DNA of 32,000 nucleotides from Geotalea daltonii FRC-32 (GTDB taxonomy: Bacteria; Desulfobacterota; Desulfuromonadia; Geobacterales; Geobacteraceae). A program made the position numbers and the translations under genes. This document shows positions 11,530 to 27,932 of this stretch, piece after piece (positions within the stretch are counted from its first letter, which is position 1; every line of letters starts with the position of its first letter). Location: NCBI RefSeq assembly GCF_000022265.1, contig NC_011979.1:2670001-2702000 (forward strand), in the 5' to 3' direction. The notes under the pieces were generated by a model, which searched no databases, was not told the origin of the DNA, and saw only the letters and a program-made list of their open reading frames with translations.

Positions 11530-11551
11530 AAGTTATCTCCCTGTGAACTTT

Positions 11552-13282: not shown

Positions 13283-13322
13283 TTGCTTTTTTCCCTGAAT
13301 ATGGTTATATAAAACATTGTTC
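13283..13322 (+). promoter_or_regulatory. Candidate sigma70 promoter of regulator 1 (TTGCTT-17-TATATA) overlapped by palindrome AAACATTGTTC
   Basis: -35 at 13283-13288, 17-nt spacer, -10 at 13306-13311. The palindrome at 13312-13322 sits at the predicted start site. The same layout precedes regulator 2. Confidence 0.35.
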
Positions 13323-13353
13323 GATAAATCTAAAGATTTGCAGAAGGACTGAA

Positions 13354-15087
13354 ATGGAGAAAAAAAATAGGAAAGTAAAAGGTTTGCCCACATATGATTC
13401 CGTTAGTAGTAGCATGCGATCACAACTGCGTTTTTCCAGTGAAACTGGTCAGATATGGCTGCACGAACACCGGATGCTGCTGGTACATGCCGATGCCCAT
13501 GCCTTGATGCGCCGCGAGTTGATCGATGCGCTGGGAATGGGGCGTGCACGTGGATTGCTCATGCGCATGGGATATGTGTCGGGGATGAGCGACTTCGAGC
13601 TTACCCGTCTCAACCCCGAAATTACCAGCGACTTGCAATTGTACATGGCAGGACCACTGCTTCACACCCTGGAAGGGATTGTTAAGACCACCATCACCAA
13701 ACTGGAAATAGACCGTAAAACGGGCAAGTTCTATGTTGAGGCGAAATGGGAGAATTCATGGGAGGGGCAGGCTCACCTGCGTCACTATGGTGAGTCGTCC
13801 GAGGGTGTCTGCTGGAACCTGATCGGCTATGCCAGTGGCTATACGTCTGCCTTCATGGGCAAGCCTATTTTATGCAAAGAGATTGCCTGCCATGCAATGG
13901 GCATGAACCATTGTTCTCTCGTTGGTAAACCGGCTGAGGAGTGGGATGATGCAAGTGATTTCGAGCTGCTGACTAATCACGAATCCATCGCCGACCAGCT
14001 CATTGGTCTTCAAAACCAGGTTGTGCAGTTGCGCTCTGCCATGGGTAAGAAAACGAAGCTTCCGTCCGATATTGTCGGCAATTCGCCGGCTTTTCTTACT
14101 GCTTACGAACTGCTTACCCAAGCAGCCGACAGCCAGATCAATGTGCTGCTCCAGGGGGAGACGGGGGTCGGCAAGGAGGTTTTCGCTCGCACGCTGCATG
14201 AGAAGGGGGTCCGTTGCAAGGAGTCGTTCATCGCCATCAATTGCGCCGCCATACCCCATGATCTGGTGGAGTCGGAACTGTTCGGCGTGGAGAAAGGCGC
14301 CTTTACCGGTGCCCTTGCCTCCCGGCCCGGTCGTTTCGAGCGTGCCAATGGCGGCACCTTGTTTCTGGATGAGGTGGGTGACCTGCCCCTTTCGGCCCAG
14401 GCGAAGCTGCTCCGCGTGCTGCAGGAGGGTGAGGTGGAACGCCTGGGAGGCACAGAAACCTACAAGGTCGATGTGCGGCTGGTTGCGGCAACCAACATCG
14501 ACCTGAAACAGCTCGTGGGTAATGGTAAATTTCGTTCCGATTTGTACTACCGGTTGAATGCTCTGCAGATCAACATTCCTCCCCTCAGGGATCGTAAGCT
14601 TGACATTTTGATCCTGGCTAAGAGTTTTCTCAAGAAATTCAGTGATATTAACGGGAAAAAACTGCGCGGTTTCTCCGACAAGGCCAAGCTGGCTTTGCTC
14701 GCCTATCAATGGCCGGGCAATATCAGGGAACTGCAGAACGTTGTGGAGCGAGGAGTTATGCTTGCTCCCAGTGGTAATCATATTGCCATAAATCACATGT
14801 TTCCTTCCTATAACGAGCAGGTAACCGAATTGCGCCTTGATGGCAAAGGGGGGCTGACCGACAGCCAGAGAGAAAGCGGCAAGGATTTCTGCGAGGCGAT
14901 CCTGAGCGGCAAAATCACCCTTGAACAGGCCAATACCCTGTTGGCGGAAGCTGCCGTAGAGAAAGCAAAGGGCAATCTTTCCGCAGCGGCGAGAATGCTC
15001 GGTCTCTCACGTCCCCAGCTTGCCTATCGCCTGGAGCACCAGAGTGAGACCTCGATGAAAGCCGGCAAACAAAGCCGCCCCCTTTGA
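13354..15087 (+). CDS. Sigma54-dependent transcriptional activator, XylR/DmpR type (XylR_N + V4R sensor, AAA+ domain, Fis-type HTH), copy 1
   Basis: Sensor: SQLRFSSETGQIWLHEHRMLLVH...GRARGLLMRMGY and V4R-like GVCWNLIGYASGY...CKEIAC...HCSLVG. AAA+: GETGVGKE, GAFTGA loop, DEVGDL. HTH: AAARMLGLSRPQLAYRL. Divergent from bssD. Confidence 0.85.
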   Translation: MEKKNRKVKGLPTYDSVSSSMRSQLRFSSETGQIWLHEHRMLLVHADAHALMRRELIDALGMGRARGLLMRMGYVSGMSDFELTRLNPEITSDLQLYMAGPLLHTLEGIVKTTITKLEIDRKTGKFYVEAKWENSWEGQAHLRHYGESSEGVCWNLIGYASGYTSAFMGKPILCKEIACHAMGMNHCSLVGKPAEEWDDASDFELLTNHESIADQLIGLQNQVVQLRSAMGKKTKLPSDIVGNSPAFLTAYELLTQAADSQINVLLQGETGVGKEVFARTLHEKGVRCKESFIAINCAAIPHDLVESELFGVEKGAFTGALASRPGRFERANGGTLFLDEVGDLPLSAQAKLLRVLQEGEVERLGGTETYKVDVRLVAATNIDLKQLVGNGKFRSDLYYRLNALQINIPPLRDRKLDILILAKSFLKKFSDINGKKLRGFSDKAKLALLAYQWPGNIRELQNVVERGVMLAPSGNHIAINHMFPSYNEQVTELRLDGKGGLTDSQRESGKDFCEAILSGKITLEQANTLLAEAAVEKAKGNLSAAARMLGLSRPQLAYRLEHQSETSMKAGKQSRPL

Positions 15088-15096
15088 GTAATGCGT

Positions 15097-15119
15097 GGGG
15101 AAGGAGATGTTCCTTCCCC
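15097..15119. terminator. GC-rich hairpin between the convergent regulator-1 and RND genes
   Basis: ggggaagga-gatgt-tccttcccc forms a 9-bp perfect stem. It has no strong U-tract on either strand, so this is a weak terminator call. Confidence 0.35.
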
Positions 15120-15156
15120 CGTAAAAGGGTGACGGTCCACCCCCCTGCAAAACCTG

Positions 15157-17619
15157 CTAACCTGCGGTTTCAATATCTGCTGGAATTCCTTCTTCAACGT
15201 ATTCATCGACGTTTTCATGCATCCCGTTCAGCATGAAGTGCGACAGGGCGGGGATGAGGATGAGGGCGCCGAACATGTTCCAGAGGAACATGAAGGTGAG
15301 GAGGATCCCCATGTCGGCCTGGAACTTGATCGGCGACAGTGACCAGGTGATGACGCCGCCGGCCAGGGTGATCCCGACCAGACCTACGACCTTGCCCGTG
15401 AACTGGACCGCCTTCTGGTACGCCTCGCCGAGCGGCAGCCCCTCCCGCTGGTACTTGAGCTGCATGCTCAGGAGATACAGGGCGTAGTCGATGCCGATGC
15501 CGACCCCAAGCGCGATGACCGGCAGGGTGGCGACCTTGACGCCGATGCCGAGCGCGACCATCAGCGCCTCGCACAGGATAGAGGTGAGGATGAGCGGCAG
15601 GATCGCCACCAGGACGGCACGCCAGCTCCTGAAGGTGATGAAGCAGAGCACGATGACGGCGCCGTAGACGTAAAGCAGCATGGTGCGGTTGGCCGACTTG
15701 ACCACGATGTTGGTGGCGGCCTCGATGCCGGAGCTGCCGGCGGCCAAAAGGAACTGCCGATCCTTGGTGGTGTGTTTTTTGACGAATTCCTCGGCCACGG
15801 TGAGGACCCGGCTCAGGGTCTCGGCCTTATGGTCGGAGAGGTAGGCGATGACCGGGGTGACCGAGATGGTGCTGTTGATCAGGTCCGGATTGTCGAAACA
15901 GGACTGCTGGCCGCTGTAGTTGAGGACCTCCTGGCTGCGGTTCAAGGTGTACCATTTCGGATTGCCGTCATAGGTGCCGGCGGTGATCATCCGGATGGCG
16001 TCGGACATGGTGACGGTGGTCTGGACGCCGGGCACCTGCTGCATGGCCAAGGCGAGGCGGTCGGCCTCGATGAGCGGCTCATATTTGATGGCACCCTCGG
16101 TGGGGGTCTTGAGGATGACGGCGAACTGGTCGCTGGAGAGGGAATAGTTGCTGGTGATGTAGTTGTTGTCCTTGTTGTAGCGTGAATTGGGCCTCAGTTC
16201 CGGCGCGCCTGGATCCAGGTCGCCGATCTTCAGGTTGAGGCTGACGACGAATCCGGCCACGGCCAGGATTGCCGAGACGACCACGGCGCGGGTGGCCCAG
16301 CGGCGTTGGGTGAAGTGGTCCAGAAGGCTCCACAGGGCGCCGACTCCTTTGCCGGTATTTTCTTCGCTCTCCTCCTGGAGGCTTCTGCGGGCAGCCTTGG
16401 GGCTGACTCCGGTGTAGGAGAGGAAGACCGGCAAGAGCAAGAGGTTGGTGATGACCAGGCCGGCCACGCCGATGCTGGCGGTCAGCGCCAGGTCCTTGAT
16501 GACCGGGATGTCGATAAGCATCAGGACGGCAAAGCCGACCGCATCGGCCATGAGGGCGGTTAGGCCTGCCAGGAACAGCCGGCGGAAGGTGTAGCGAGCC
16601 GCCACCAGTTTGTGGGTGCCGCGTCCCACGTCCTGCATGATGCCGTTCATCTTCTGCACCCCGTGGGAGACGCCGATGGCAAAGACCAGGAACGGCACCA
16701 GGATGGAGTAGGGGTCCAGTTCGAAGCCCAGCGTGGCGACGATTCCCAGCTGCCAGATGACTGCCACCACCGAACAGATGATGACCAGCCCCGTGCTCCG
16801 GATGCAGCGGGTGTAGAAGAAGATGACGATGGCTGCGATCAGGGCGGCGATGCCGAAATAGGTCATCACCTGCATCAGGCCGTCGATCAGGTCACCCACC
16901 AGCTTGGCAAAGCCGACGATATGGATCTTGATCTCGCCCTTGCCCATTGCCTCGTACTTCTTCCGGATGTCGTTCTCGATCTGCTTGGAGAAGGCGTTGT
17001 AGTCGAGCCTTTTTCCCGTGCTGGGGTCCTTGTCCAAAAGCGGCACAAAGACCATTGCCGATTTGTAGTTGGTGGCCAGGAGGCTCCCCACGATGCCGGA
17101 ACGGGTGATGTTCTGCTTGAGCTTCGACACCTTCTCTTCCGAGCCGTCGAAGTTGTCCGGCATGACCGGCCCCCCCTGGAATCCCTCCTCGGTGACCTCG
17201 TTCCAACGGACCGCCGGTGTCCAGATAGACTTGACCCAGGCCCGGTCCACCCCGGGGGTGAGCACCAGATCGTCGTTCACCTGCCGTAAAATATCCAGGT
17301 ACTGGGGATCGAAGATGTCCCCCCTGGTGTTCTCCACCACCACCCGGATCGAATTGCCCAGGCCCGGCAGGTCCTGTTTGTTGGCCAGATAGTTCTTGAT
17401 GTAGGGGTGGCTCTGGGGGAGCATCTTCTCGAAGCTCGCGTTGAAGACAATTCTCGTTGTCTGGTAGGCAAGGGCCAGGGTGACAACCACGCAGGCGATC
17501 ATCACCGCCAGCCGGTTGTTGAAGATCAGCCGCTCAAGCATGTTGCCGGATTTCGGGTCGAAATCCTTCAGCTCCTTGACTACCGGCATTTCCTCTGATT
17601 TTTCCATTCCAACTGCCAT
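15157..17619 (-). CDS. RND-superfamily inner-membrane transporter (HAE3/HpnN/MMPL-like, 820 aa)
   Basis: Two blocks of multiple hydrophobic helices are separated by large soluble loops. GGGAGA RBS. It is the terminal gene of the DUF1302/DUF1329/BNR/RND set. Confidence 0.75.
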   Translation of the reverse strand: MAVGMEKSEEMPVVKELKDFDPKSGNMLERLIFNNRLAVMIACVVVTLALAYQTTRIVFNASFEKMLPQSHPYIKNYLANKQDLPGLGNSIRVVVENTRGDIFDPQYLDILRQVNDDLVLTPGVDRAWVKSIWTPAVRWNEVTEEGFQGGPVMPDNFDGSEEKVSKLKQNITRSGIVGSLLATNYKSAMVFVPLLDKDPSTGKRLDYNAFSKQIENDIRKKYEAMGKGEIKIHIVGFAKLVGDLIDGLMQVMTYFGIAALIAAIVIFFYTRCIRSTGLVIICSVVAVIWQLGIVATLGFELDPYSILVPFLVFAIGVSHGVQKMNGIMQDVGRGTHKLVAARYTFRRLFLAGLTALMADAVGFAVLMLIDIPVIKDLALTASIGVAGLVITNLLLLPVFLSYTGVSPKAARRSLQEESEENTGKGVGALWSLLDHFTQRRWATRAVVVSAILAVAGFVVSLNLKIGDLDPGAPELRPNSRYNKDNNYITSNYSLSSDQFAVILKTPTEGAIKYEPLIEADRLALAMQQVPGVQTTVTMSDAIRMITAGTYDGNPKWYTLNRSQEVLNYSGQQSCFDNPDLINSTISVTPVIAYLSDHKAETLSRVLTVAEEFVKKHTTKDRQFLLAAGSSGIEAATNIVVKSANRTMLLYVYGAVIVLCFITFRSWRAVLVAILPLILTSILCEALMVALGIGVKVATLPVIALGVGIGIDYALYLLSMQLKYQREGLPLGEAYQKAVQFTGKVVGLVGITLAGGVITWSLSPIKFQADMGILLTFMFLWNMFGALILIPALSHFMLNGMHENVDEYVEEGIPADIETAG

Positions 17620-17725
17620 GTCAGTTCTCCCTGTTTTAACTGGTTTTTAATTGCAATCTGCATGACGTGAATCGCAGGGGCAACCCCATGTGCCTGCCCA
17701 ACAGGAGCGGCCACACAGGCCGTTA

Positions 17726-18832
17726 CTACCTGATCTCTTGCACCTTCACGCCCCGCTTGCCGACCAGGGCCAGGGTGTTGCCGTCAATGGCGGCCACACC
17801 GGCGGCCGGGGTCGGCCGGTCTATCTTGAGCTGGTTGAAACTGGTGCCGTTATCGGCACTTACCAGCACATGTCCTCCCTGGCTTACCAGGACGATCTTG
17901 CCATCCTCGGTAACGGTGCCGGCCATCAGGCCGACCGGGATGCCGGTTTCAACCTTCTGCCAAGTGGAACCGCCGTCCTTGCTTTTGAAGGCATTGCCGC
18001 GCATGCCGTAGGCGATTACCGCCCCGTGCTTGCCGGTGATGCCGAAAAAGGTGCCGGTATAGGCGGTCTTCAGCGCCGTGAAACGTTTCTTTGCCTGGTC
18101 CAGCTTGAACAAAGTCCCCTGCTCGGAGCTGATGAACAGATCTTTGCCGACAGGGCGGATGGCATAGAGATGAAAGCGCTTCGGGTTGTCGATCCTGTCG
18201 TACCAGGGGGTCCAGCTCTTGCCGCCGTCCACCGTACGGAAGATCAGGTTGAAGGCGCCGACGATGAAGCCGGTGGTGTCGCTCTCGAACCACACGTCCA
18301 GAAACGGCTTGTCAGGCCCTTGATCGACGAATTTCTTTATTTCCGCCATCATTGCCGCGGTCTCCGGCCCGCCCGGCGCGCTTACCGGCGTATTTCCAGG
18401 GGCGTGGCAGGTGCCGCAGCTGTTGGTTCCCATGTAGTGGCCTATCAGGACCTGGGCCGCTGCCCGGCCGTCGAATTGCTTGACCCAGTTGGCCCCGCCG
18501 TCTTCTGAGTGCAGTACCACCCCGTCGTGCCCAACGGCCCATCCCTTCTGTGCCGACGGGAAATGCACCGCCAACAGATCGGAGCTCACTGGGACGCCGG
18601 CCTGGGTCCAGCTCTTCCCCTGGTCGTCGGAGTAGACGATGTGGCCGTGTTGGCCCACCCCCACCACCCGCTTCCCTGCCGTGGCGACGCTGATGAGAAG
18701 GGTCTTGCCCACATGCCGGCTCTTCAGCGCCGGCGTGTCGAGAACATCGTGGAAGGAAGCTGCGGCAAACGTGACGAATGAGAGCATGACCACGGCGGCT
18801 GCCGGCAATATAGTTAGTATTCTCGACTTCAT
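17726..18832 (-). CDS. Secreted BNR/Asp-box repeat beta-propeller protein (Ycf48-like)
   Basis: Signal peptide MKSRILTILPAAAVVMLSFVTFAAA. Repeated SxDxGxxW boxes: SDDQGKSW, SEDGGANW, TVDGGKSW, SKDGGSTW, SADNGTSF. Confidence 0.75.
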   Translation of the reverse strand: MKSRILTILPAAAVVMLSFVTFAAASFHDVLDTPALKSRHVGKTLLISVATAGKRVVGVGQHGHIVYSDDQGKSWTQAGVPVSSDLLAVHFPSAQKGWAVGHDGVVLHSEDGGANWVKQFDGRAAAQVLIGHYMGTNSCGTCHAPGNTPVSAPGGPETAAMMAEIKKFVDQGPDKPFLDVWFESDTTGFIVGAFNLIFRTVDGGKSWTPWYDRIDNPKRFHLYAIRPVGKDLFISSEQGTLFKLDQAKKRFTALKTAYTGTFFGITGKHGAVIAYGMRGNAFKSKDGGSTWQKVETGIPVGLMAGTVTEDGKIVLVSQGGHVLVSADNGTSFNQLKIDRPTPAAGVAAIDGNTLALVGKRGVKVQEIR

Positions 18833-18909
18833 AGTTTCTCCCTTTCAGTGTATCTGCGAAGGCACTCCCGACGCTTCTTTTCATCCAGTCGCCGGGAGTG
18901 CCCTCCAGC

Positions 18910-20265
18910 TTACCTTATGCCTTGGCCTGCCAGTGAATCGGAAGTCCATTCCCTGCGCGGGAAGGCTGTTTTGCCATGGATGATTCCCTGTTTGCCCGTT
19001 ACAGGTAACGCGTTTATGGCATAGGAATCCGTAAGCAGGTCATGGACGAGGAAGCTGTCGCCAAAAGCGCAGGGAGAATCGTAACTGGGGGTTATATAGG
19101 TGAAGCCGACCCGGTAGAGCTGTCCCCTGCCGTCGTACTGATCGGCAGCAGCGGCTCTCCAGCTGTCTTCATCCAGGTAGAATACCCGTTTGCTGTAAAG
19201 GTGGCGTTTCCCCGGTTTCAGGGTCGCCTCCACCACCCAGACACGGTGCAGTTCCCAACGCACCAGATCGGGATTCAGATGTTTCGCTTTCAGGACATCC
19301 TTCTCGTGGTTGGACTGGTACAGCATCTTGTAATCGTTGTACGGAATGTACATTTCTTTCTTGCCCACAAGCTTCCAGTTGTAACGTTCAGGCGAGCCGC
19401 TGAACAGGAAGAGATCGTCCCAGGTGGTTTGCCCGCCATATATGGAGCAGGGGGTGTCGAAGGAGAGGTCCGGTGCCAGTTTCACACGCCGCTGGCCGGG
19501 GAGATACTGCCATCCCTGTCTGGCGTTACGGGCATAATCGAGCGGGTCTATTATCAGGAACGACTCGCCGACTCGGCGACTTGGCCCGACGTAATTCACT
19601 TTGAGGGCGTAGAAGTCTTTGGCGTTGGGAGTTTTGGGATCGTAATAGAAGAACTCCTGCTTCACATTCCCATCGGTCTGCATGGTCGGCCGGCCGCCAG
19701 CGTCCACGGTATAGGAACGGTACCTTTCCTGATATGTCACATCCTCGTAATGGAGGATGTGATTCCATATGGCTTCGATGCCGCTCTTGGGTATGGGGAA
19801 GGGGTAGCCGGCGTGGGCGCCGGTAAAGGCCAGACCATTGTCGGTCAGCTTCGCCGTCAATGCGTGCCTTTTGGTGTTCTCCTGGACATATTTGGGGTGG
19901 GCGGCGGATCGATAGGTCTTGTACACGTCGATACGGAAGCTGGGATACTTCTTCAGCATCGCTTTGGCTCCCTCTGAGAGCTTGTTTGCATACTGGGCCA
20001 TGTTCTTGGCGGTGATGGAGAACAGGGGTTTTTCACCCGCATAGGGGTCGGGCCGCCAACCGTCATTTTTGTAGCCTGCCGGCGACTTGGTGTTGCCGCC
20101 GGTGTACTCCGGGATAGTGCCTTCCTTGTTGCCGGCCTTTTCGGCGCCGATCATTGTCAGGTTCTTGCCGAGCTGTGCGGCCTCCTCCTGGGATACCGCT
20201 GCCAGGGCCACCCCGGAAAAGGTAAGGACCAGCAGGGCTGCAAATGAATATTTTAGTTTCAACAT
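18910..20265 (-). CDS. DUF1329 family periplasmic protein (LolA/LolB-like clan as I recall)
   Basis: Signal peptide MLKLKYSFAALLVLTFSGVALA. Family-typical N-terminus GAEKAGNKEGTIPEYTGG. AAGGAG RBS. It lies 17 nt after the DUF1302 gene. Confidence 0.7.
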   Translation of the reverse strand: MLKLKYSFAALLVLTFSGVALAAVSQEEAAQLGKNLTMIGAEKAGNKEGTIPEYTGGNTKSPAGYKNDGWRPDPYAGEKPLFSITAKNMAQYANKLSEGAKAMLKKYPSFRIDVYKTYRSAAHPKYVQENTKRHALTAKLTDNGLAFTGAHAGYPFPIPKSGIEAIWNHILHYEDVTYQERYRSYTVDAGGRPTMQTDGNVKQEFFYYDPKTPNAKDFYALKVNYVGPSRRVGESFLIIDPLDYARNARQGWQYLPGQRRVKLAPDLSFDTPCSIYGGQTTWDDLFLFSGSPERYNWKLVGKKEMYIPYNDYKMLYQSNHEKDVLKAKHLNPDLVRWELHRVWVVEATLKPGKRHLYSKRVFYLDEDSWRAAAADQYDGRGQLYRVGFTYITPSYDSPCAFGDSFLVHDLLTDSYAINALPVTGKQGIIHGKTAFPRREWTSDSLAGQGIR

Positions 20266-20282
20266 TTTGTTATCTCCTTTTC

Positions 20283-21974
20283 TTAGAAACTGGTTTTAAA
20301 AGTCAGGGAAAGCAGGTCGCGGTCCTTGAGTACCCCGTAGATGTCACCGGCGCCGTCTCCTGCTACCGAAGCCAACCCGGGGAAGGGGATCTGGCCGTTG
20401 GCGTCGGGATGGAGGGTGCCGAAAAAGCTTGCATAGGTAAGATCGATTTTGTACTTGGCCAGGATGTCGAAGGAGAGACCGACACTGTAACTGCCGCTCT
20501 TTTTGGCGCCGCCGCCGGTGACAGCCGAGTTGCCTGAAATGCCGGTCGCGACGTTGATGGGCATGGCAAGGTCGACGCTGGGGAATACCTGTTTCCATTC
20601 CGGCACGAAATTCAGCGTGACAGTGGTATTGTCGCGGGTCGGCTTGTCGAGACCGCCGTATTCGGCGCGTCCGTTATAGAATTCCGGATTCTTGGTGACC
20701 CTGACCATGCGTCCGTAAGTGAATTCCAGGATCGCCGTACCCGTATGGAAAAGCGGCGTCTTGGGGAGGACGCTCAGGAAGTTCAACACGGCGTGCATGG
20801 TGTCTCCCCGTGCGCCCACCGGTGCCAGGGTCGTACTGGCGATGGGCATGTTGTGGCGGTAGGAGACCTCGGACCCTACGCTTATTCCGAAGAATTGCTT
20901 GGCGAAACTCAGGCCGTAGAGGTCGATGTTGGAGCCGTAGGCGAAGTGGTATCGCAGCGGGATCGGTGAGACCCCGTCGTAGTCCCCCACAACCTGGGGC
21001 AGTTTGTCCGAAAATCTGCGGTAGTAAGCCCCGATAGTACCTTTGAGTCCCTCAGGGCTGTAGCGGGCCGCGATTCCCCAGTCCCCCACCTGCCTCGGCT
21101 CACGGGGGCCGCCGTTACGGGGATTGATGAGCGGGTTCATGTTGAGGATGACCGATTCTCCACCCTCCAGAAAGGGGTCGTACATTCCCAGGTAGGTCCC
21201 CGACTCAGGGAACAGGGAGGGCTCCCACTGCAGGTAGTACTGTGCTGCAATGGATAAATCATTGGTTGGCTGCACCTGGACCGAGACCTGGTTGAGGGGC
21301 CGGAAGATCTCTTTCAGTTCCACACCGGGCATGCTGAGCGCCTTGGCCAGATCGATGGGAGATTGGCCGTAGGAAATGCCGTTCATTCCCGCATAGGGGA
21401 AAAAAGCCTCACCCCAATAGATCGTGTGGCGCCCGACCCTGGTGTTGACGGGAACCTCACCCAGGTCTACCTTGGCAAAGGCGAAGGCGTCCAGTAGTTC
21501 GGCATCGAGTCCGTAGCGGTCCCGGGCAAAGGGACTGATACCTAAAGCTTGCCGGTCGTTGACGATGTGGTTTTCGGTCGCTACAGAGTCATTGTCGAAC
21601 CCGCGCCTGTACATGGGGTCATACCAAGCCGCTGCGCTGAGCCGGATCCCGAAGTCATTCTTGTATACCGCATCCGCCTCGGTAAGGAGGTCCAGGCGGC
21701 TGGAGACGATCCCCCGGCCGAAATTGCGGTCGCCGTCATCGTTGTTGATGCTGTTGGTGATCGCCGGATTCCGCCCCTTCACCCGTGAAGCCAGGGTGTA
21801 TCTTAAGGTGTTGTCCCAATGGACTACCAGATCCTCGCTTCCGGTGGGAATCTCCAGCGCATCGGCACTGCCGCAGATGCTCGTCACTGCTATCAATGCC
21901 ACTGCCAGGCACTTCTGGCGGCTGATGAACCGCGGCGCAGCTTTATGCTTTAAAGTGTGTATTGCCTTCCCCAT
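20283..21974 (-). CDS. DUF1302 family protein, probable outer-membrane beta-barrel
   Basis: N-terminal signal-like segment. Family-typical WDNTLRYTLASR...NDDGDRNF...SSRLDLLTE. C-terminal ...SLTFKTSF (aromatic terminus). AGGAGG RBS. Confidence 0.7.
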   Translation of the reverse strand: MGKAIHTLKHKAAPRFISRQKCLAVALIAVTSICGSADALEIPTGSEDLVVHWDNTLRYTLASRVKGRNPAITNSINNDDGDRNFGRGIVSSRLDLLTEADAVYKNDFGIRLSAAAWYDPMYRRGFDNDSVATENHIVNDRQALGISPFARDRYGLDAELLDAFAFAKVDLGEVPVNTRVGRHTIYWGEAFFPYAGMNGISYGQSPIDLAKALSMPGVELKEIFRPLNQVSVQVQPTNDLSIAAQYYLQWEPSLFPESGTYLGMYDPFLEGGESVILNMNPLINPRNGGPREPRQVGDWGIAARYSPEGLKGTIGAYYRRFSDKLPQVVGDYDGVSPIPLRYHFAYGSNIDLYGLSFAKQFFGISVGSEVSYRHNMPIASTTLAPVGARGDTMHAVLNFLSVLPKTPLFHTGTAILEFTYGRMVRVTKNPEFYNGRAEYGGLDKPTRDNTTVTLNFVPEWKQVFPSVDLAMPINVATGISGNSAVTGGGAKKSGSYSVGLSFDILAKYKIDLTYASFFGTLHPDANGQIPFPGLASVAGDGAGDIYGVLKDRDLLSLTFKTSF

Positions 21975-22032
21975 CTACTCCTCCTATTTGATGTACTGCC
22001 CAGTGATGCCCCCGATTGCGGCGACTCCGCAA

Positions 22033-23094
22033 TCAAGCAAGGAAATGCATCTGGGACATGCATCTGTCCATGTGCTGCAGGATGTCCCGGCAAGCTTCCC
22101 CGTAGAGATCCCTTGCCGAACTGCCGTTGGAGCGCAGTGCCTGTGCAATGGCCTTCCCGCACCGGTAGCCGCTATCCATCGCAGCACTGATCCCTTCGCA
22201 GTTAAGGTAGATGAAACCGGCCGCTTCTCCGGTGACGAGCACCTTTTCCTGACCCAGGAAGATCGGCAGCAGTTCACAGGTGCATCCCTCGTCCCGCCAA
22301 TGTTCGCCGAAGCTGACGCCAAACCGGCCTGACAGCAACTCTTTGAACTTTTCCATGGATTGGCGAAGGTTGCGTCCGTCCATTCCCCCCACATGCATGA
22401 CCAGGTACTCGTCCTTCTGATGTACGCAGAGAATGTAATCTCCGATTTCCTGTCTCAGAAATACGGTCCATCCGTTTGGCTTCAACGAGCCCAGTGACTT
22501 TACCTTGTAATAACTCTGATAGGATGCGAGCTTGTGCCGCTGGGCGTACTCCGGATTCTGTGCGTGCAGCAAACGCCTCACGGTGGAATCGTTGCCGTCC
22601 GCACCCACGAAATATTCGCACTTGAAGACGGCAGATTCGTTTGTCCGCGACATATGGACATGAACGTCGACTGTGCTGCCACCGGCGTCGAAGGCCTTCA
22701 CTTTTGCACCGTCGCGGTACTCGGCCCCCGATTGGTCCAGCAGCCACTTGTCGAACTTGTCTCGCCAGATATTGTGATAGGTGCGAGAGAACTTCCTGCC
22801 GTCTTTGTCGATTTCCCAGGTGTACGGGATATAACCCTGCTCATCATCCCATTCGCGGATGTCGTCCGCTTCCACGAATTTATTGCCGCAATACACCTCG
22901 GCCGGGACGTGGGTCCCGAAATAGGCTCTGATCAGTTCCTGTGTCTGTCCGAACAACACTCCCGAACAGGTTTTGTGTCGGGGAAGAATTTCCTTTTCCA
23001 GGACCAGGACACTGAAACCTTCATCCTTGAGCGCCTTTGCACAGGTGGAGCCTGCCGGCCCGGAGCCGGCTATCACCACGTCGTACTGTTGCAT
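22033..23094 (-). CDS. FAD-dependent oxidoreductase, geranylgeranyl-reductase/FixC-like family
   Basis: YDVVIAGSGPAGSTCAKALKDEGFSVLVLEK (GxGxxG...E), FVGADGNDSTVRR (GADG motif), VLVTGEAAGFI...EGISAAMDSG (GDAAG-like). AGGAGG RBS directly after a hairpin. Confidence 0.7.
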   Translation of the reverse strand: MQQYDVVIAGSGPAGSTCAKALKDEGFSVLVLEKEILPRHKTCSGVLFGQTQELIRAYFGTHVPAEVYCGNKFVEADDIREWDDEQGYIPYTWEIDKDGRKFSRTYHNIWRDKFDKWLLDQSGAEYRDGAKVKAFDAGGSTVDVHVHMSRTNESAVFKCEYFVGADGNDSTVRRLLHAQNPEYAQRHKLASYQSYYKVKSLGSLKPNGWTVFLRQEIGDYILCVHQKDEYLVMHVGGMDGRNLRQSMEKFKELLSGRFGVSFGEHWRDEGCTCELLPIFLGQEKVLVTGEAAGFIYLNCEGISAAMDSGYRCGKAIAQALRSNGSSARDLYGEACRDILQHMDRCMSQMHFLA

Positions 23095-23107
23095 TCAATC
23101 CTCCTGG

Positions 23108-23137
23108 CTTCCCCCCTGACCCGGATCAGGGGGGAAG
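23108..23137 (-). other. Strong intercistronic stem-loop between bssB2 and the flavoprotein gene
   Basis: cttcccccctga-cccgga-tcaggggggaag forms a 12-bp perfect GC-rich stem. It has no U-tract. The RBS of the next gene starts 2 nt after the stem. Confidence 0.55.
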
Positions 23138-23170
23138 GTATTAGAGTCGGAAAGGGTACGTCCCGTTACT

Positions 23171-23398
23171 TCACACATGCTCCCTGAAACTGAGCTTTCC
23201 TTCTTCGTGTTTGGCGCAGGTCATGGTGTTCACGTCGGTTACCCACCGTTTCCAAACGCCCCCCATCTTGTTTCTGTTGACCGTGCATTGCCCCCGCAGC
23301 GGATTGGTGGGGTCTGCAATCTGCCATTTACAGCTTTGGCAAGGTTTTTTCGTGCCGGCCTCTTGGTGCATCATGTACTCGTCGACAGTTGTGCTCAC
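23171..23398 (-). CDS. bssB: Benzylsuccinate synthase beta subunit, copy 2
   Basis: KKPCQSCKWQIADPTNPLRGQCTVNRNKMGGVWKRWVTDVNTMTCAKHEEGKLSFREHV. I prefer GTG 23398, 5 nt after AGGAGG. The track's TTG at 23422 has no RBS. Confidence 0.85.
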   Translation of the reverse strand: MSTTVDEYMMHQEAGTKKPCQSCKWQIADPTNPLRGQCTVNRNKMGGVWKRWVTDVNTMTCAKHEEGKLSFREHV

Positions 23399-23432
23399 TA
23401 TTGCCTCCTGTGGTCCTGCCAAAGACCATTTG

Positions 23433-26021
23433 TCATATCTGCGTATTCAGGAACTCAAGATCATCGGCGCCAAAGGATTGCTCATTTCTGGCAATGATGG
23501 TGTTTTGGCCGTAAGTGGGGATATCCACGAACCTGGCGCTGAATCCTGAGACCCTGACGATGAGGTCCTGGTGTTTCTCGGGTTCTTTTTGAGCTGCCTT
23601 CATCTCCGCAGTGCTCACGCAGTTGAACTGGACGTGATCGATGCGAAGTTTCTCCCATGCATCCATATAGGATTTCCAGATGTCGAACCCATGCACGCTG
23701 CGCATGAGCGGTACCGATAACCGTTGATTCAACAGATTGGCCTTCTGATTTTTCTGTACCTTGGAGACCGATTTCAATACGGCCGTCGGACCTTTCTTGT
23801 CGGTGCCCATGTAAGGAGAGATCCCCCCGTCGTCGCCGGCCTCGCCCCCGAAACGGCCATCGGGCGTGGGGCCGGTCCGGGACCCGATTTCCATGTAAAG
23901 GCCGACCGCCTGACCTACGGGAAGTACGGGGCCACCCGAGTAATTGGTGATCTTCGCCATCTCGCCGCCGATGATGTCCTCGTAGAAATCCTTGATGATG
24001 GAATCGGCATAGTCGTCGTCATTGCCCCATTTGGGCGCGTTGAGGAAATCCCGGCGCATCTCTTCATAGCCGTGCCAGTTTGCCCGGAGGGCAGTGACGA
24101 GCTCTGCCATGGTGTACTTCTTGTCGTCATAGATCAGTTTCTTGATTGCCACCATGGAGTTGGCGGCAACGACCGTGGTGATGGGGTTGTGCCAACCGTT
24201 AGGCTGCTCTGAAAGCTCCATGGCATCGATGCCCAGTTCCATGCAGCCGTCGTCGATGCTGGATACAAAAGGCATCTGCAGGAATTTGGACTCGAAGTAG
24301 CGCATGATGTCCTTGGCGCGGATCACCTTGCTGGTAGCGTAGGCATACTGGGTTCTGAAGGCTTCCCACAACTGCTCGAAGGTCTTGAAGGTGGTAGGAT
24401 CGCCGGTGTGCGGGCCCAGCTGCATGCCCGAATACGACCAGTCGAACCCGTCGGCCAGGACAATTTCCATCATTTTGGCAGGGAAGATGGATCCACCCCC
24501 TTCGGACCTGGTCTTATGGGTCTTGCGCCTGCCGCACACGCCGGGAGACATGCACAGCACCAGGCCCCAGTAATGGGCCTCGGCATCGGTCGCGCCGTTG
24601 TTGTTCTTGCTGAATTTGCTGTAATACTTCAGCTGTTCCGTACCGATTACGTCATGTTTTATGGATGGGTAACCCAGACCGTCCCGAATGCATTCGAAGA
24701 CAAGGCGCTTCGTTTTTTCTCGACCGTTCGGATGCCACCTGAAGACGATGGACGGTTCCGTGGTCCGGATATTCCTTGCCCCTTCCAGAATCGCGTCGGT
24801 CATGTCGCTGCAGGCATCCACATAACCCGGTTTGGTTCCCCCTATGGTCAGAATGAAAAGGTCGTTGGAGCCGGGGAAGATCTCCCGGTAGGCCCTGGAC
24901 TTTCCTGCACCATGCTCGGAAATTTTCAGCCGCTCCATCTCCACCATTTCGACTACGTCAGTGTAGGTCATGGGCTGGAAGGATTTTTCCACAACGCTTA
25001 TGTTGTAGTAAGGCTCCAGCAGTTCGTCTTCCTTATGTGCATAGCCGCTTGCATAGCGATCGATGGCATGACAGAGAAGGAATGTGTACCATTTTGCCTG
25101 GAAGGCATCCTTCAAGCCCTTGCATGGCTCTGCCGGAACCCGGTGACTGATGTCGGCGATCTCAAGCAGTTCCTCTTTCCTTTCCTGGTTGGTCTCGAAA
25201 TGTTCGGCGACGATCCTGGCGAGCCTGGCATGGCGCCTTGCCCAGTTGATAACCGCTTCGTCCGCAATAATCATGGCCTTCCAGACGTCGATTTTGGCAA
25301 TCCAGTCAAGGCCGGTAGTTGCATTCCAGGGTACCTTTTGCATTTCCTTTTTGGCATGATCGATGTTTTCCTTTGCCAGTTCGACCCGTTTCAGCAGGCC
25401 GTCCTGAATGACCGTTTCATAGGGGGGGCAAATACTGTTGTAACCGGTAGCGAAGCCGGGGGCCTCCATGGTGCTGACCTGGTACATCTGCAGCAGTTCT
25501 TCCTGGGTGAAATATCGCTCCCCCTTAGCCTGCATGCTGTATTTCTTCCAGTATTCGTTGATTTCCGCAGCTTCCTCTTTGGGCTCGGGGGAATAGTTGC
25601 TGATGAGGTAGTCCTGGACCGCCATATAAGCGAGCTCAGGATAGAGGGGGAACATCTCGGGGTCTTCCGCGTGATAGCCGATGATGAATTCGTCCTGCTG
25701 CAGAACCAGCGTGCTTTTGTTCAATATATTCGCCAGCCCCAGAGCCCTTCTGATCACCTCCGGCTGCCCTGCGCTTGCCTTGTGGGCCTCGGTGATATAT
25801 CGCATCCTCTCGATGCCCGCTCGAACCTCCGCATCGACAAACTCGCCGGCCGAGGCATGCTTCCAGCGGCATCTTGCCTTGAGTCTTTTTGTCCTCTCCG
25901 TGGTTGGACGGGCAAGGTTCTCGTGCAGTACTTCGTCGGCAATGCCATTTTCATCCGGATTTGCCAGCGGAAAGTCTATAACCCTGCCGTCGTACTTGAT
26001 AGATGTAGCAACTGTTGCCAT
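23433..26021 (-). CDS. bssA: Benzylsuccinate synthase-type fumarate-adding glycyl radical enzyme, alpha subunit, copy 2 (862 aa)
   Basis: Collinear with copy 1 and the same length. It has the same RVSGFSARFVD, VLCMSPGV and TRSEGGG motifs. 77 of the first 100 residues are identical to copy 1 by hand count. GAGGAGG RBS. Confidence 0.95.
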   Translation of the reverse strand: MATVATSIKYDGRVIDFPLANPDENGIADEVLHENLARPTTERTKRLKARCRWKHASAGEFVDAEVRAGIERMRYITEAHKASAGQPEVIRRALGLANILNKSTLVLQQDEFIIGYHAEDPEMFPLYPELAYMAVQDYLISNYSPEPKEEAAEINEYWKKYSMQAKGERYFTQEELLQMYQVSTMEAPGFATGYNSICPPYETVIQDGLLKRVELAKENIDHAKKEMQKVPWNATTGLDWIAKIDVWKAMIIADEAVINWARRHARLARIVAEHFETNQERKEELLEIADISHRVPAEPCKGLKDAFQAKWYTFLLCHAIDRYASGYAHKEDELLEPYYNISVVEKSFQPMTYTDVVEMVEMERLKISEHGAGKSRAYREIFPGSNDLFILTIGGTKPGYVDACSDMTDAILEGARNIRTTEPSIVFRWHPNGREKTKRLVFECIRDGLGYPSIKHDVIGTEQLKYYSKFSKNNNGATDAEAHYWGLVLCMSPGVCGRRKTHKTRSEGGGSIFPAKMMEIVLADGFDWSYSGMQLGPHTGDPTTFKTFEQLWEAFRTQYAYATSKVIRAKDIMRYFESKFLQMPFVSSIDDGCMELGIDAMELSEQPNGWHNPITTVVAANSMVAIKKLIYDDKKYTMAELVTALRANWHGYEEMRRDFLNAPKWGNDDDYADSIIKDFYEDIIGGEMAKITNYSGGPVLPVGQAVGLYMEIGSRTGPTPDGRFGGEAGDDGGISPYMGTDKKGPTAVLKSVSKVQKNQKANLLNQRLSVPLMRSVHGFDIWKSYMDAWEKLRIDHVQFNCVSTAEMKAAQKEPEKHQDLIVRVSGFSARFVDIPTYGQNTIIARNEQSFGADDLEFLNTQI

Positions 26022-26044
26022 GAATGACCTCCTCTTTGGGCATC

Positions 26045-26218
26045 TTAAGCTTTTTTAAATGTTGGGCATGACGGTGAATCGGTCCTGGTCGGTTTCGAAA
26101 GCCAGTATTTACCCTTTGCGTCCTGCTTTTCCACAACGCAGTCCCCTTTGCCTGCCTCATAGTCCCCGGCATTTTCAGGAACCGGAAAATAAAATGAGCA
26201 ATTCTTACATGTGGTCAT
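26045..26218 (-). CDS. bssC: Benzylsuccinate synthase gamma subunit, copy 2 (57 aa; below the ORF-track cutoff)
   Basis: Hand translation: MTTCKNCSFYFPVPENAGDYEAGKGDCVVEKQDAKGKYWLSKPTRTDSPSCPTFKKA. AAGGAG RBS. Four Cys conserved with copy 1. Confidence 0.85.
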   Translation of the reverse strand: MTTCKNCSFYFPVPENAGDYEAGKGDCVVEKQDAKGKYWLSKPTRTDSPSCPTFKKA

Positions 26219-26275
26219 TTGGAATCTCCTTTATTTGCATATTGAAATTCTGCGGAATATGTAGATGCATACTCT

Positions 26276-27316
26276 TCAGTGTCGTGTTGTGACCACCCCC
26301 TTTTTTTGTGGCATGTTCATGGGTGGCAAATGCTCCCGTTTTGCTTCCAATGCCCTGTTGGCGACACCATTTCCTGCTGCAGCCGACGCCCCAACCAAAC
26401 CGCCGATAGTAATCTCTCGAATACCTTGCTGTTCGAGAGCTTGCACCAGGGGAGCAAGCTGCTGAACCGCCAGGTCTGGAACTTTCAGGTATTGATAGCT
26501 GCGCCCCAGCTGAATATATTTCCCAGCGGCGTACGAGTGGAAAGGAAGGATGTCGACTCCGGACAGGTTGCCGGCGAAAAGTCCCAGATATGCCGCGTAT
26601 GCTTCGAAATCTTCGCTGCTGTCATTGAAGTGGGGAATGATCGGGAGATGGATACGTACTGCTGTCTTGGCTTCCATAAGCCGTTCCAGGTTTGACAGGA
26701 TTTTCTGCAGAGAACCGCCGATTACCCGTTGATGCTTTTCGGGATCCATGGATTTGATGTCGACGATAAACAGATCGACCAATTTCAATAGCGGGACGAT
26801 GGTTTCCCACTCGGCAAAGAGGCAGGTCTCGATTGCCACATGGAGATTCTCTTTTACTTTGAGGTTACGGGCCAGCTCACAGGTGAATTCGGGATACAGC
26901 AAAGGTTCTCCACCACTGATTGTGACTCCACCCCCGCTAGGCTGGTAAAAGATCCGGTCCGACACAGCCTCCAGGAGAATGTTCTCCATAGGGATGGACT
27001 TGCCTACCGCTTCACGTGCCCCGAACCGGCAGGCGGGTACACACTGCAAGCAGGATGTGCATAGACTTCTGTCGGTTGTTCTCTCCATACAGTCGTGGTC
27101 CATATTGCCCGTGGCTGATGTACAGGCAGTCTGGCATTGCCGGCAGCCTGTACATCTGTTTGCATAAAAATAGAACTCTTGTTTAGAGCCGATGTTTTCA
27201 GGGTTGTGGCACCATGGGCAATGGAGTGGACACCCCTTGAGGAAAATGGTTGTTCTGATGCCGGGGCCATCCTGCAGGCAGAATCTCTGTATTTCGGTGA
27301 TGAGCGGAGTGGGCAT
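26276..27316 (-). CDS. bssD: Glycyl radical enzyme activating enzyme (radical SAM), copy 2
   Basis: ATG 27316 (MPTPLITEIQRF...) follows AAGGAGG. CPLHCPWC plus CTGCRQCQTAC and CTSCLQCVPACR. The track ORF start at 27388 overlaps the promoter. Confidence 0.9.
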   Translation of the reverse strand: MPTPLITEIQRFCLQDGPGIRTTIFLKGCPLHCPWCHNPENIGSKQEFYFYANRCTGCRQCQTACTSATGNMDHDCMERTTDRSLCTSCLQCVPACRFGAREAVGKSIPMENILLEAVSDRIFYQPSGGGVTISGGEPLLYPEFTCELARNLKVKENLHVAIETCLFAEWETIVPLLKLVDLFIVDIKSMDPEKHQRVIGGSLQKILSNLERLMEAKTAVRIHLPIIPHFNDSSEDFEAYAAYLGLFAGNLSGVDILPFHSYAAGKYIQLGRSYQYLKVPDLAVQQLAPLVQALEQQGIREITIGGLVGASAAAGNGVANRALEAKREHLPPMNMPQKKGVVTTRH

Positions 27317-27370
27317 GGGGCCTCCTTTAGTGCAAGAACGGGTCTGAACGACTGCATCTGATGGACTATT

Positions 27371-27386
27371 TAGCAGAAGACATGCC
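27371..27386 (-). promoter_or_regulatory. Sigma54 (-24/-12) promoter of bss operon 2
   Basis: The minus strand reads TGGCATGTCTTCTGCT with GG/GC at consensus spacing, about 55 nt upstream of the bssD2 ATG. The flanking 23 nt (atgccaaaacaatgtttcataaa) are identical to copy 1. Confidence 0.75.
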
Positions 27387-27844
27387 AAAACAATGTTTCA
27401 TAAAATATTGGTGGTATGTTTGTTTCTTCCGACACTATGTTTGAGAGGTGGATATAACGTCTTTTAAATCATGATGTTGTGAGGTGGAATGTTACATAAA
27501 ATATCGTTTGTGTTACGTGGCGATAGGGGGGGTGCGACACGTTTTTTTTATTTTGTGGGGCGTCTTGAGGTGCCTGCACCAAATGTGAGGAGGAAGGTCA
27601 TGGGGAAAAGTTTGATTATTTTCTAAATATTACCCTTCGTATTCGCGTATTTCATAAAATAATGAAGTATTTTCCGCATTGCCTCGAAAAAGTATTAAGA
27701 AATGGTGTGTCGATATGGGGGGGATGGTCGACTGGGAATCTTAGGGGTAAAGAAAGGTGTAATTGCATAACACATTGATAATCTATTGCTTTTGTAATGT
27801 TTGATGCCCGGTTCATAGCCAGTTCGGGCACAAAGTGTAAATAA

Positions 27845-27886
27845 TTGCAATTTTAGTTGATGTGATATATATGTAAAACATTGTTT
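27845..27886 (+). promoter_or_regulatory. Candidate sigma70 promoter of regulator 2 (TTGCAA-17-TATATG) followed by palindrome AAACATTGTTT
   Basis: -35 at 27845-27850, -10 around 27868-27873, palindrome at 27876-27886. The layout parallels copy 1. Confidence 0.3.
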
Positions 27887-27932
27887 CAATATTGTCAGGA
27901 TGTTTGCGAGGTAACTCTCGAGAAAGGGTAGT

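Follow-up and report, generated by a model that had tools for sequence, protein, structure and literature searches.

The stretch of DNA analysed here, hereafter the window, spans 32,000 nucleotides of Geotalea daltonii FRC-32. Our subject is a run of nine successive minus-strand genes at 15157-27316, in which a benzylsuccinate synthase (BSS) operon, bssDCAB, is followed by a flavoprotein gene and by four genes for envelope proteins; they were delimited from the list of open reading frames (ORFs) and identified with Pfam. The assignment to strain FRC-32 and to locus tags Geob_2442-2451 rests on published promoter 25-mers and quantitative PCR (qPCR) primers, which map exactly to the window. The product of the last gene is, moreover, 100% identical to the 'exporter, RND superfamily, putative [Geotalea daltonii FRC-32]'. 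A second, paralogous bss operon (operon 1) lies at 3526-12872 on the same strand; its genes carry the suffix 1 below, those of the bss operon under study (operon 2) the suffix 2.

The run opens with bssD2 (Geob_2450, 26276-27316), encoding the glycyl-radical activating enzyme, with Pfam domains Radical_SAM, Fer4_12 and Fer4 and 66% identity to bssD1. Its true start is the ATG at 27316, which gives a product of 346 aa and is the gene call in two independent assemblies; the mechanical ORF start, a TTG at 27388, overlaps the promoter and was rejected. The BSS subunit genes follow: bssC2 for the gamma subunit (Geob_2449, 26045-26218; BssC_TutF, E = 1.4e-30), bssA2 for the alpha subunit, the toluene-induced copy (Geob_2448, 23433-26021; PFL-like and Gly_radical), and bssB2 for the beta subunit (Geob_2447, 23171-23398; BssB_TutG, E = 3.4e-41). 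The last of these has an AGGAGG ribosome-binding site ahead of a GTG start, and its 75-aa gene call is also found elsewhere. Next comes a cytoplasmic FAD flavoprotein with a predicted geranylgeranyl reductase (GGR) fold (Geob_2446, 22033-23094; FAD_binding_3).

The four envelope genes, all on the minus strand like the preceding ones, encode a DUF1302 outer-membrane beta-barrel (Geob_2445, 20283-21974; E = 3.6e-116), a DUF1329 LolA-like periplasmic protein (Geob_2444, 18910-20265; DUF1329, E = 1.8e-138, and LolA_like), a BNR/Ycf48-like periplasmic beta-propeller (Geob_2443, 17726-18832; PSII_BNR and BNR, with matches to Ycf48 in the PDB) and an inner-membrane transporter of the MMPL, putatively HAE3-type, resistance-nodulation-division (RND) class (Geob_2442, 15157-17619; MMPL). 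They resemble, in this order, AmeA, AmeB, AmeC and AmeD, to which we return below. The original prediction had described the nine genes as a minus-strand unit with gaps of 57, 23, 34, 76, 58, 17, 77 and 106 nt, each gene having its own ribosome-binding site; the gaps agree exactly with the sequence, and a GGAG/AGGAGG-type site precedes all nine start codons. Its view that the genes look like one sigma54-driven unit, given the shared strand, the gaps of 17-106 nt and a single promoter, also held up at the level of the sequence.

That promoter is a sigma54-type -24/-12 element, TGGCATGTCTTCTGCT, at 27372-27387 on the minus strand, where a perfect pattern match coincides with published 5'RACE (rapid amplification of cDNA ends) data. 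The pattern TGGCAY-N5-YTGCW has two perfect matches in the 32 kb, this one and another at 12917-12932, lying upstream of bssD2 and bssD1, respectively. The published 5'RACE 25-mer for "bss", TGGCATGTCTTCTGCTAAATAGTCC, matches exactly at 27363-27387 and that for "hbs" at 12908-12932; the -24/-12 element (GG-N10-GC) is present at the mapped transcription start and is identical to the 5'RACE-derived sequence. The element had been placed at 27371-27386 in the original prediction; it is real, and lies one base further on, but it was not new, having already been mapped by 5'RACE (PMC11497800). The same element is kept upstream of bssD in G. toluenoxydans. In each of the G. toluenoxydans locus (L058; handles of this kind denote loci from other genomes), Desulfuromonas sp. 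TF (L040) and a metagenome-assembled genome (MAG, L006), a single perfect sigma54 site is present, ahead of bssD, and no sigma54 match precedes the flavoprotein, DUF1302 or the module in the window, L058, L040 or L006.

Divergently oriented to the unit is bssR (Geob_2451, 27933-29675, plus strand), for a XylR/NtrC-type sigma54 activator with the Pfam domains XylR_N, V4R, Sigma54_activat and HTH_8; the tag is named in the supplement of PMC11497800. Its product is 78% identical to that of a paralogue at 13354-15087, the sensing domains being 67% and the AAA+ domains 88% identical. Between bssR and the promoter lies an AT-rich regulatory region (27388-27932) that shares conserved blocks, by alignment, with the paralogous region at 12873-13353. 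The palindrome AAACA[AT]TGTTT occurs three times in the window (27388-27398, 12933-12943 and 27876-27886; 0.03 expected) and in the regulatory regions only. At each of the two bss promoters a copy lies directly against the -24 box, as part of a 24-nt block identical in both, and the third lies near the start of the activator gene. We regard the palindrome as a candidate operator or activator-binding site.

Downstream of the promoter, the transcription architecture is marked by hairpins. After bssB2 there is a GC-rich hairpin with a 13-bp stem and no U-tract (23108-23137, minus strand), ending just upstream of the flavoprotein ribosome-binding site. A long GC-rich hairpin follows directly on the DUF1329 stop codon (18854-18908, minus strand; the 77-nt gap folds with -37.6 kcal/mol, z = -6.4). 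Both of these strong internal hairpins lack a U-tract, and both were absent from the earlier description. Finally, two tandem GC hairpins lie between the convergent RND and regulator-1 genes (15088-15156, minus strand; 69 nt, -30.1 kcal/mol, z = -3.3) and likely form the end of the unit; the terminal hairpin that had been proposed at 15097-15119 exists and is the second of this pair. None of the minus-strand intergenic gaps contained a U-tract terminator in our scan, in agreement with what had been claimed. The one minus-strand terminator match inside the unit is weak and falls within the RND coding region (15311-15297), and the total number of terminator matches was no higher than the shuffled expectation. 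A consensus scan of the internal gaps returned no promoter-like match, and sigma70-like matches were at chance level. We rejected, on these grounds, the idea that the envelope genes have an internal promoter of the sigma54 or sigma70 type: there is no sigma54 match, and the chance-level sigma70-like matches do not fall in the gaps.

Comparison with other loci helps in reading these structures. A strong GC hairpin sits right after bssB in most bss loci (L002-L034, across phyla) whatever gene follows, though with no conservation of sequence; one is also found in operon 1 of the window, downstream of bssB at 8526-8634. Since the hairpin is equally present where the operon member bssE follows, it does not mark the operon end and is better read as an intercistronic stabiliser or attenuator. 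The position of the post-DUF1329 hairpin is kept in six Geobacteraceae-type modules (the window, L006:15330-15383, L027:7170-7216, L043:13052-13100, L044 and L046), and among the three that can be aligned (the window, L006 and L027) the stem shows compensatory changes, G-C to A-U and G-C to U-A. This hairpin splits the outer-membrane pair from the inner-membrane pair, which also differ in GC content at third codon positions (GC3; DUF1302 0.74 and DUF1329 0.70, against BNR 0.80 and RND 0.87). The flavoprotein gene has a GC3 of 0.69, and bssA2, bssD2 and bssC2 have values of 0.70, 0.58 and 0.47, respectively. As judged from the sequence, co-transcription of all nine genes is the most economical reading.

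The predicted locations of the four envelope proteins are those of a trans-envelope system. By simple sequence analysis, DUF1302, DUF1329 and BNR carry signal peptides, DUF1329 being without a lipobox; the C-terminus of DUF1302 (...FKTSF) is an outer-membrane C-terminal signal, and the hydrophobic segments of the RND protein fit the usual topology of 12 transmembrane (TM) segments with two periplasmic loops. The best NCBIfam match of the RND protein was HAE3 (TIGR00921), at 147.7 bits and so under the cut-off of 351.9, with HpnN and MMPL weaker. Against HAE1 structures it gave a weak match (E about 1e-5) over one TM bundle, and no sequence relatives of DUF1302 or DUF1329 were found in the PDB. 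The Pfam search detected neither HlyD/MFP nor OEP (TolC-like) families among the nine products. A pump of the HAE1 (Ttg/Acr) type was dismissed, as no membrane-fusion or TolC-like partner is encoded.

The closest described counterpart is AmeABCD, accessions CDM25259-62, of Castellaniella defragrans 65Phen, a tetrapartite HAE3-type RND system in an anaerobic monoterpene island (Puentes-Cala and Harder 2018, PMC6394551). It is induced by alpha-phellandrene, and deletion of ameABCD led to worse growth on non-functionalised monoterpenes, lower tolerance and more Nile Red accumulation (PMC6394551). The module in the window has the same families in the same order (DUF1302, DUF1329, COG4447/Ycf48-like and COG1033 RND, putatively HAE3 in the window as well) and similar sizes (563/451/368/820 aa, versus 605/451/316/787 aa for AmeABCD), and both are found inside an anaerobic hydrocarbon-degradation gene cluster. 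However, ame is a separate cassette between monoterpene operons, whereas the module in the window sits behind the activating-enzyme genes, and the substrates differ, being monoterpenes for AmeABCD and presumably toluene here.

Other work bears on the same families. The four are cofit in transposon sequencing with random barcodes (RB-TnSeq) of several bacteria (Price et al., 10.1101/072470), and in P. putida (PP_0765/0766 and PP_2018/2019) they are needed on Tween 20 and butyl stearate (10.1101/2020.07.04.188060). DUF1302/DUF1329 genes had been noted earlier in aromatic clusters, namely pipAB, which is p-cresol-induced, in Thauera aromatica T1, and phnK in Delftia (10.1101/072470). DUF1302 has been modelled as an 18-strand barrel, and the four-protein system is present in nearly all Pseudomonas aeruginosa strains (PMC13499233); published AlphaFold co-fold predictions join DUF1329 either with DUF1302 or with BNR and RND. 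The AmeABCD deletion, the RB-TnSeq cofitness and the ester growth of P. putida make outdated the view, in the original prediction, that no role of the set had been defined by experiment. In the cofitness cluster of Price and Thompson the same families act together genetically, and they occur in the same order on many plasmids and chromosomes; those genes stand alone or by fatty-acid genes under LuxR/MalT-type regulators, whereas the set in the window lies behind a XylR/sigma54 operon for a glycyl radical enzyme (GRE).

Systems of other families share the concept of a toluene catabolic cluster bearing its own envelope transport device. The ttgDEF solvent efflux pump adjoins the tod genes in Pseudomonas putida DOT-T1E. 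Pumps of the Ttg/Srp kind consist of an HAE1 RND protein, a membrane-fusion protein and a TolC-like channel, and neither of the latter two families is among the nine products of the window. TodX/FadL, in turn, is a single passive channel, which occupies the operons of L002 and L003 in place of the module.

We could follow the linkage between bss and the envelope set across genomes through a scan with BssA2, taking one genome per species, which gave 36 loci; onto these we mapped all proteins of the window and, as further queries, the divergent module of Desulfuromonas sp. TF. In eight of the ten informative Desulfuromonadia genomes the bss operon was linked to the four-family set. One identical, intact nine-gene layout, with the set after the flavoprotein, is shared by G. 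daltonii and G. toluenoxydans (L058). The MAG L006 has the order bssDCAB-flavoprotein-bssEF-DUF1302-DUF1329-BNR, while in the MAG L027 (bssCAB-DUF1302-DUF1329-BNR-RND) the set follows bssB directly, and the MAGs L008 and L025 read bssDCABEF-FAD_binding_2-(about 2 kb)-DUF1302-DUF1329. In Desulfuromonas sp. TF (L040:13828-20337) and the MAG L005 (8834-15493), bssEF is followed by BNR-RND-DUF1302-DUF1329, the RND and DUF1302 genes overlapping by 25 nt; with identities to the envelope proteins of the window of no more than about 25%, this looks like a paralogous set recruited independently to an orthologous bss operon. Short gaps separate the module from the bssEF genes ahead of it in both L006 and L040.

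Some genomes have the module attached to a BssA2-type operon, others to one of the BssA1 type. That there are five arrangements, with module types of two paralogous kinds, argues for selection on the linkage rather than inheritance of one accident. The coupling of bss and envelope genes that had been proposed for the window is thus borne out by G. toluenoxydans, Desulfuromonas sp. TF and five MAGs, and its recurrence in several arrangements argues for a functional link. It is real, and it is conserved within one lineage: among the 16 bss loci from other lineages, which include Desulfosarcina, Herminiimonas, Bacillota and Desulfarculus, none had the four-family set within the flanks fetched (at least 5 kb downstream of bssB in 14 of them). 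G. metallireducens was not among the named matches in the homologue list. A reverse metagenome scan with DUF1302 returned six loci only, too few for an enrichment test. The linkage appears to be undescribed before: in the papers searched, Butler et al. 2007 included, we found no mention of Geob_2442-2446, nor any of the bss clusters of Desulfuromonas sp. TF and G. toluenoxydans.

Where the set is missing, another outer-membrane protein can take its place. The two most closely orthologous bss operons, those of Geotalea sp. SG265 (L002:12424-13785) and Citrifermentans bremense (L003:15661-17031), whose BssA proteins are 93-94% identical, carry a Toluene_X/FadL channel after bssEF and before a FAD_binding_2 flavoprotein, and the set is absent from them. 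Some outer-membrane component occurs in all bss operons of the group with enough downstream sequence, except L004. A different association was seen on the chromosome of Azoarcus sp. KH32C (L051:5723-19757): here a MalT-type regulator and a DUF1302-DUF1329-BNR-RND set (RND 73% identical) are followed by a major facilitator superfamily transporter, a short-chain dehydrogenase/reductase, another glycyl radical enzyme (837 aa) and an activase, a second, unrelated pairing of a GRE with the module. A DUF4125 gene is also found after the bss cluster in two different loci of Desulfuromonadia (L004:9466-10116 and L040:20632-21062).

The flavoprotein deserves separate treatment. Its AlphaFold2 (AF2) model has a mean predicted local distance difference test (pLDDT) score of 91.7, and a fold search with this model ranked 3OZ2 first (query-normalised TM-score, TMq, 0.81), followed by 3ATQ and the 4OPx entries (0.77-0.80, including the Sulfolobus GGR), all above halogenases and monooxygenases. 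At this level of predicted fold the label 'GGR-like' in the original prediction is sound, with a TM-score of 0.81 to PDB 3OZ2. Sequence identity to GGR structures is 16-18%, and the score against TIGR02032 (GG-red-SF, NCBIfam) is 101 bits, under the cut-off of 158.8; the protein being under the curated threshold for GGR, we call it GGR-fold and not GGR. In 30 homologues the residues G10, G12 and G15 (GxGxxG) and P38, R39, K41, C43 and S44 (P-R-x-K-x-C-S) are invariant, and we take the motif around C43 to resemble the cysteine motif of GGR. Sequence analysis found no signal peptide. A halogenase or monooxygenase was considered and rejected: the sequence matches to halogenases are weak, and the fold search places geranylgeranyl reductases first. 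G. daltonii is a strict anaerobe.

In five more Desulfuromonadia loci, those of Desulfuromonas sp. TF, G. toluenoxydans, L004 and L006 among them, the gene immediately after bssB encodes an orthologue of the flavoprotein (70-95% identical), and more distant homologues are found in unrelated contexts. An obligate partnership with the module was ruled out, as the flavoprotein occurs in L004 with no module beside it, the module occurs in L027 with no flavoprotein, and a homologue sits in a bbs-like operon in L054; the flavoprotein is an accessory, separable from the module, of anaerobic operons for aromatics and hydrocarbons. In L054 (5791-11068 of a 1.49-Mb Joint Genome Institute metagenome contig), the homologue, 55% identical, is the last gene of a bbs-like operon with CoA-transferase, acyl-CoA dehydrogenase, enoyl-CoA hydratase and MaoC genes; the protein, seen in 78 blocks of the collection, belongs to a very often sampled uncultured organism. 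In Aromatoleum bremense (L038:7627-21080) we observed a XylR-type regulator, a flavoprotein homologue (53% identical), the acetophenone carboxylase genes, a benzoylacetate-CoA ligase gene and a BNR/Ycf48-like gene, at whose start the locus ends. An accessory set similar to that of the window may flank the apc-bal operon of this organism.

As for the enzyme itself, operon 2 carries BssB_TutG, BssC_TutF and a radical-SAM activase in D-C-A-B order, as detected with Pfam. BssA2 is 73% identical to TutD (PDB 4PKC) without gaps; BssA1 is also 73% identical to TutD, and the two copies are 80% identical to each other. In the alignment, C490, R505 and G826 of BssA2 correspond to C493, R508 and G829 of TutD. 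We checked 17 catalytic and pocket residues, listed partly from PMC12358834 and PMC13298812 and partly from general knowledge, and 16 of them are the same in BssA1, BssA2 and TutD (in TutD numbering, E189, Y197, S199, I384, F385, L391, L492, C493, R508, W613, N615, I617, Q707, V709, L711 and G829); the seventeenth, I620, is Val in both copies. With the checked catalytic and pocket residues the same in both copies, nothing in the sequence points to different substrates.

The published bssA qPCR primers map to 23531-23649, within bssA2, so that the published bssA (Geob_2448) is bssA2 and hbsA (Geob_2438) is bssA1. Together with the promoter 25-mers, this identifies copy 2 as the published bss operon. 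In that study bssA was induced about two-fold on toluene, sigma54 dependence was reported as well, and copy 1, named hbs and annotated as 3-hydroxybenzylsuccinate synthase, was reported to be induced on benzene (PMC11497800). The suggestion that copy 2 is a second fumarate-adding enzyme, possibly with a different substrate, finds no support in these data: 16 of the residues are identical in both copies and TutD, and the published work makes this the toluene-induced copy. The paralogues do differ in two other respects, namely in the sensing domains of their regulators (67% identical) and in their accessory genes. Other genera have orthologues of each BssA paralogue, at 92-94% identity, which indicates that the duplication is old.

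Operon 1 is canonical, comprising bssDCAB, bssE (AAA_5; 7647-8525, minus strand), a bssF-like VWA gene (5935-7650, minus strand) and genes for a Phenol_MetA_deg outer-membrane protein and a FAD_binding_2 flavoprotein. With the bss operons of Thauera, Azoarcus and Aromatoleum (bssDCABE(FGH...)), as with operon 1, operon 2 shares the D-C-A-B order, the small subunits, the activase and the hairpin after bssB. It differs from them in having the flavoprotein and the envelope set instead of bssE and bssF; Pfam found neither of these two genes in operon 2, and both are in operon 1; they count as accessory to the BSS gene set and do not define its catalysis. Control also differs: the bss operons of denitrifiers are governed by the two-component systems TdiSR/TutBC, unlike the XylR/sigma54 control of operon 2. 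The bss operon of G. daltonii described by Bullows et al. 2024 as four genes, bssDCAB, is the same DNA, with tags Geob_2447-2451 mapping to the window (PMC11497800). That paper does not mention Geob_2446-2442; the nine-gene extension and its conservation are what the present analysis adds.

Taken together, these observations suggest a toluene-induced unit in which bssDCAB, the flavoprotein and an AmeABCD-type hydrocarbon efflux/tolerance module would be read through conserved hairpins, an interpretation to which we give an even chance of being right. The XylR-type activator (27933-29675), acting at the sigma54 promoter (27372-27387), would drive transcription through bssDCAB and on into the GGR-fold flavoprotein and then the AmeABCD-type four-part envelope system. 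Read-through past the U-less hairpin after bssB2 is probably reduced, so that less of the downstream genes would be expressed, and the post-DUF1329 hairpin may further lower the BNR-RND pair relative to the DUF1302-DUF1329 pair. At the protein level, by analogy with AmeABCD and with the published AlphaFold complex predictions, the proton-driven HAE3-type RND protein and its Ycf48-like propeller would take toluene from the inner membrane or the periplasm, and the hydrophobic cargo would be handed to the LolA-like DUF1329 carrier and delivered by it to the DUF1302 outer-membrane barrel. The net effect would be to hold membrane toluene under the toxic level during growth on this substrate. The predicted locations (signal peptides, C-terminal signal and RND pattern) fit such a mechanism.

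Several points weigh against this interpretation. The only study of the locus treats bss as four genes and leaves the downstream genes unmentioned, and the hairpin after bssB2 may be a full transcription stop rather than a partial one. The likeness to AmeABCD is one of families, order and sizes. Phenotypes found elsewhere are pleiotropic, or concern growth on esters and not solvent tolerance (10.1101/072470, 10.1101/2020.07.04.188060). The TodX/FadL-type channel of L002 and L003 and the Phenol_MetA_deg porin of operon 1 fit uptake as well. The closest relatives of the RND protein (91% identical) are encoded in a Geobacter-like cluster from a metagenome, among genes of the p-cresol methylhydroxylase and 4-hydroxybenzoyl-CoA-reductase types; the set, in unchanged gene order, is also present on 43 plasmids, where fatty-acid genes and LuxR/MalT regulators are frequent neighbours. 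In view of this p-cresol-type cluster and of the wide spread of the set on megaplasmids, the idea that the envelope system is dedicated to BSS, as had been put forward, is not tenable.

The device might serve uptake instead of efflux, with the DUF1302 barrel and the DUF1329 carrier bringing toluene across the lipopolysaccharide barrier and the periplasm, in the manner of the TodX/FadL channels of other toluene operons, a function that would be relevant at low substrate. We consider this unlikely, yet it stays alive as a rival, since most operons of the group carry an outer-membrane device: the closest orthologous operons (SG265 and C. bremense) have their Toluene_X/FadL protein after bssEF and not the four-family set, operon 1 has its Phenol_MetA_deg protein, and L004 is the one exception among the operons with enough downstream sequence. 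Likewise, P. putida mutants fail on Tween 20 and butyl stearate and not on free fatty acids (10.1101/2020.07.04.188060), and the Foldy authors propose a substrate-transport system. Toluene, however, crosses membranes readily, and energised import seems unnecessary. To our knowledge, RND/MMPL proteins are exporters driven by the proton gradient. The sole hydrocarbon phenotype, that of AmeABCD, is moreover a loss of tolerance, which a co-substrate rescues in part, along with a rise in dye accumulation (PMC6394551).

Alternatively, the genes might be adjacent without being co-expressed. On this account the bssB2 hairpin would close bssDCAB, and the five genes beyond it would form one or two units with unrecognised promoters of their own, placed here only through the clustering of catabolic-island genes. 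The strong hairpins after bssB2 and DUF1329 fit such a division, as do the GC3 of BNR and RND (0.80-0.87, versus 0.47-0.70 for the bss genes), the habit of pseudomonads of keeping the DUF1302/DUF1329 and BNR/RND pairs at separate loci, and the four-gene operon of PMC11497800. Nonetheless, the hairpin and the ribosome-binding site take up nearly all of the 76-nt gap before the flavoprotein, so that a promoter would not fit, and the minus strand has no sigma54 site for the downstream genes, its sigma70-like matches being at chance level. The hairpin after bssB is found just as well where bssE follows, the modules of L006 and L040 lie beyond bssEF with short gaps, and the linkage recurs in five arrangements. 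We therefore regard separate expression as improbable, and co-transcription remains our preferred reading.

A role in envelope remodelling, in which toluene would induce the export of a lipid or another envelope component that hardens the envelope, without being cargo itself, seems to us quite unlikely. Such export was proposed for a cell-wall component by Price et al., from pleiotropic cofitness (10.1101/072470), and the only other characterised HAE3 members cited in PMC6394551 are the hopanoid transporters HpnN. DUF1329 is LolA-like, and the adjacent flavoprotein, which might modify an isoprenoid lipid, has the predicted fold of a geranylgeranyl reductase; the apc-bal acetophenone genes of Aromatoleum bremense have its homologue on one side and a BNR gene on the other. 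Against this, the flavoprotein and the module are separable (L004, L027 and L054), lipid-synthesis genes are absent from the unit, and the repeated siting of the module in catabolic clusters for different hydrophobic substrates suggests a substrate-related cargo. The most specific version, in which the GGR-fold enzyme would saturate an isoprenoid lipid (a hopanoid or polyprenyl precursor, or a menaquinone tail) and the HpnN-related RND protein, propeller, carrier and barrel would move this lipid to the outer membrane, is very unlikely, although, if true, it would make DUF1302/DUF1329 a new inner-to-outer-membrane lipid route comparable to Lol, Lpt or Mla.

Returning to the efflux/tolerance interpretation, the bss operon, its promoter and its toluene response were known already, and the envelope family has a genetically tested hydrocarbon-tolerance member. 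What lies here is an Ame-type module in an anaerobic hydrocarbon cluster, in this case behind the activating-enzyme genes. In Geotalea and Desulfuromonas the module is apparently under a hydrocarbon-sensing activator, behind the best-understood anaerobic hydrocarbon-activating enzyme. The locus offers a defined inducer, a candidate cargo (toluene) and simple phenotypes by which efflux, uptake and remodelling could be separated, and an inducible expression construct has already been introduced into G. daltonii (PMC11497800). For bioremediation genomics, the bss operons of iron reducers are to be read as longer units with envelope functions, and the bss paralogues of G. daltonii as differing in regulators and accessory genes, not in known active-site residues.

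Some features of the unit and its surroundings remain to be recorded. The RND protein is far better conserved (85-92% identity in other Geobacteraceae, and 73% to the protein encoded on the Azoarcus sp. KH32C chromosome) than DUF1302 (about 60-64%); this contrast, and that in GC3 along the unit, could reflect a mosaic history or differing evolutionary rates. No Rfam families or tRNAs were found in the window, the remainder of which is made up of operon 1, the two XylR-type activators and the end of a bbs-like operon. At the end of operon 1 (3526-5902, minus strand), the Phenol_MetA_deg gene overlaps by 11 nt the FAD_binding_2 gene, whose product is flavocytochrome c/ketosteroid-dehydrogenase-like.

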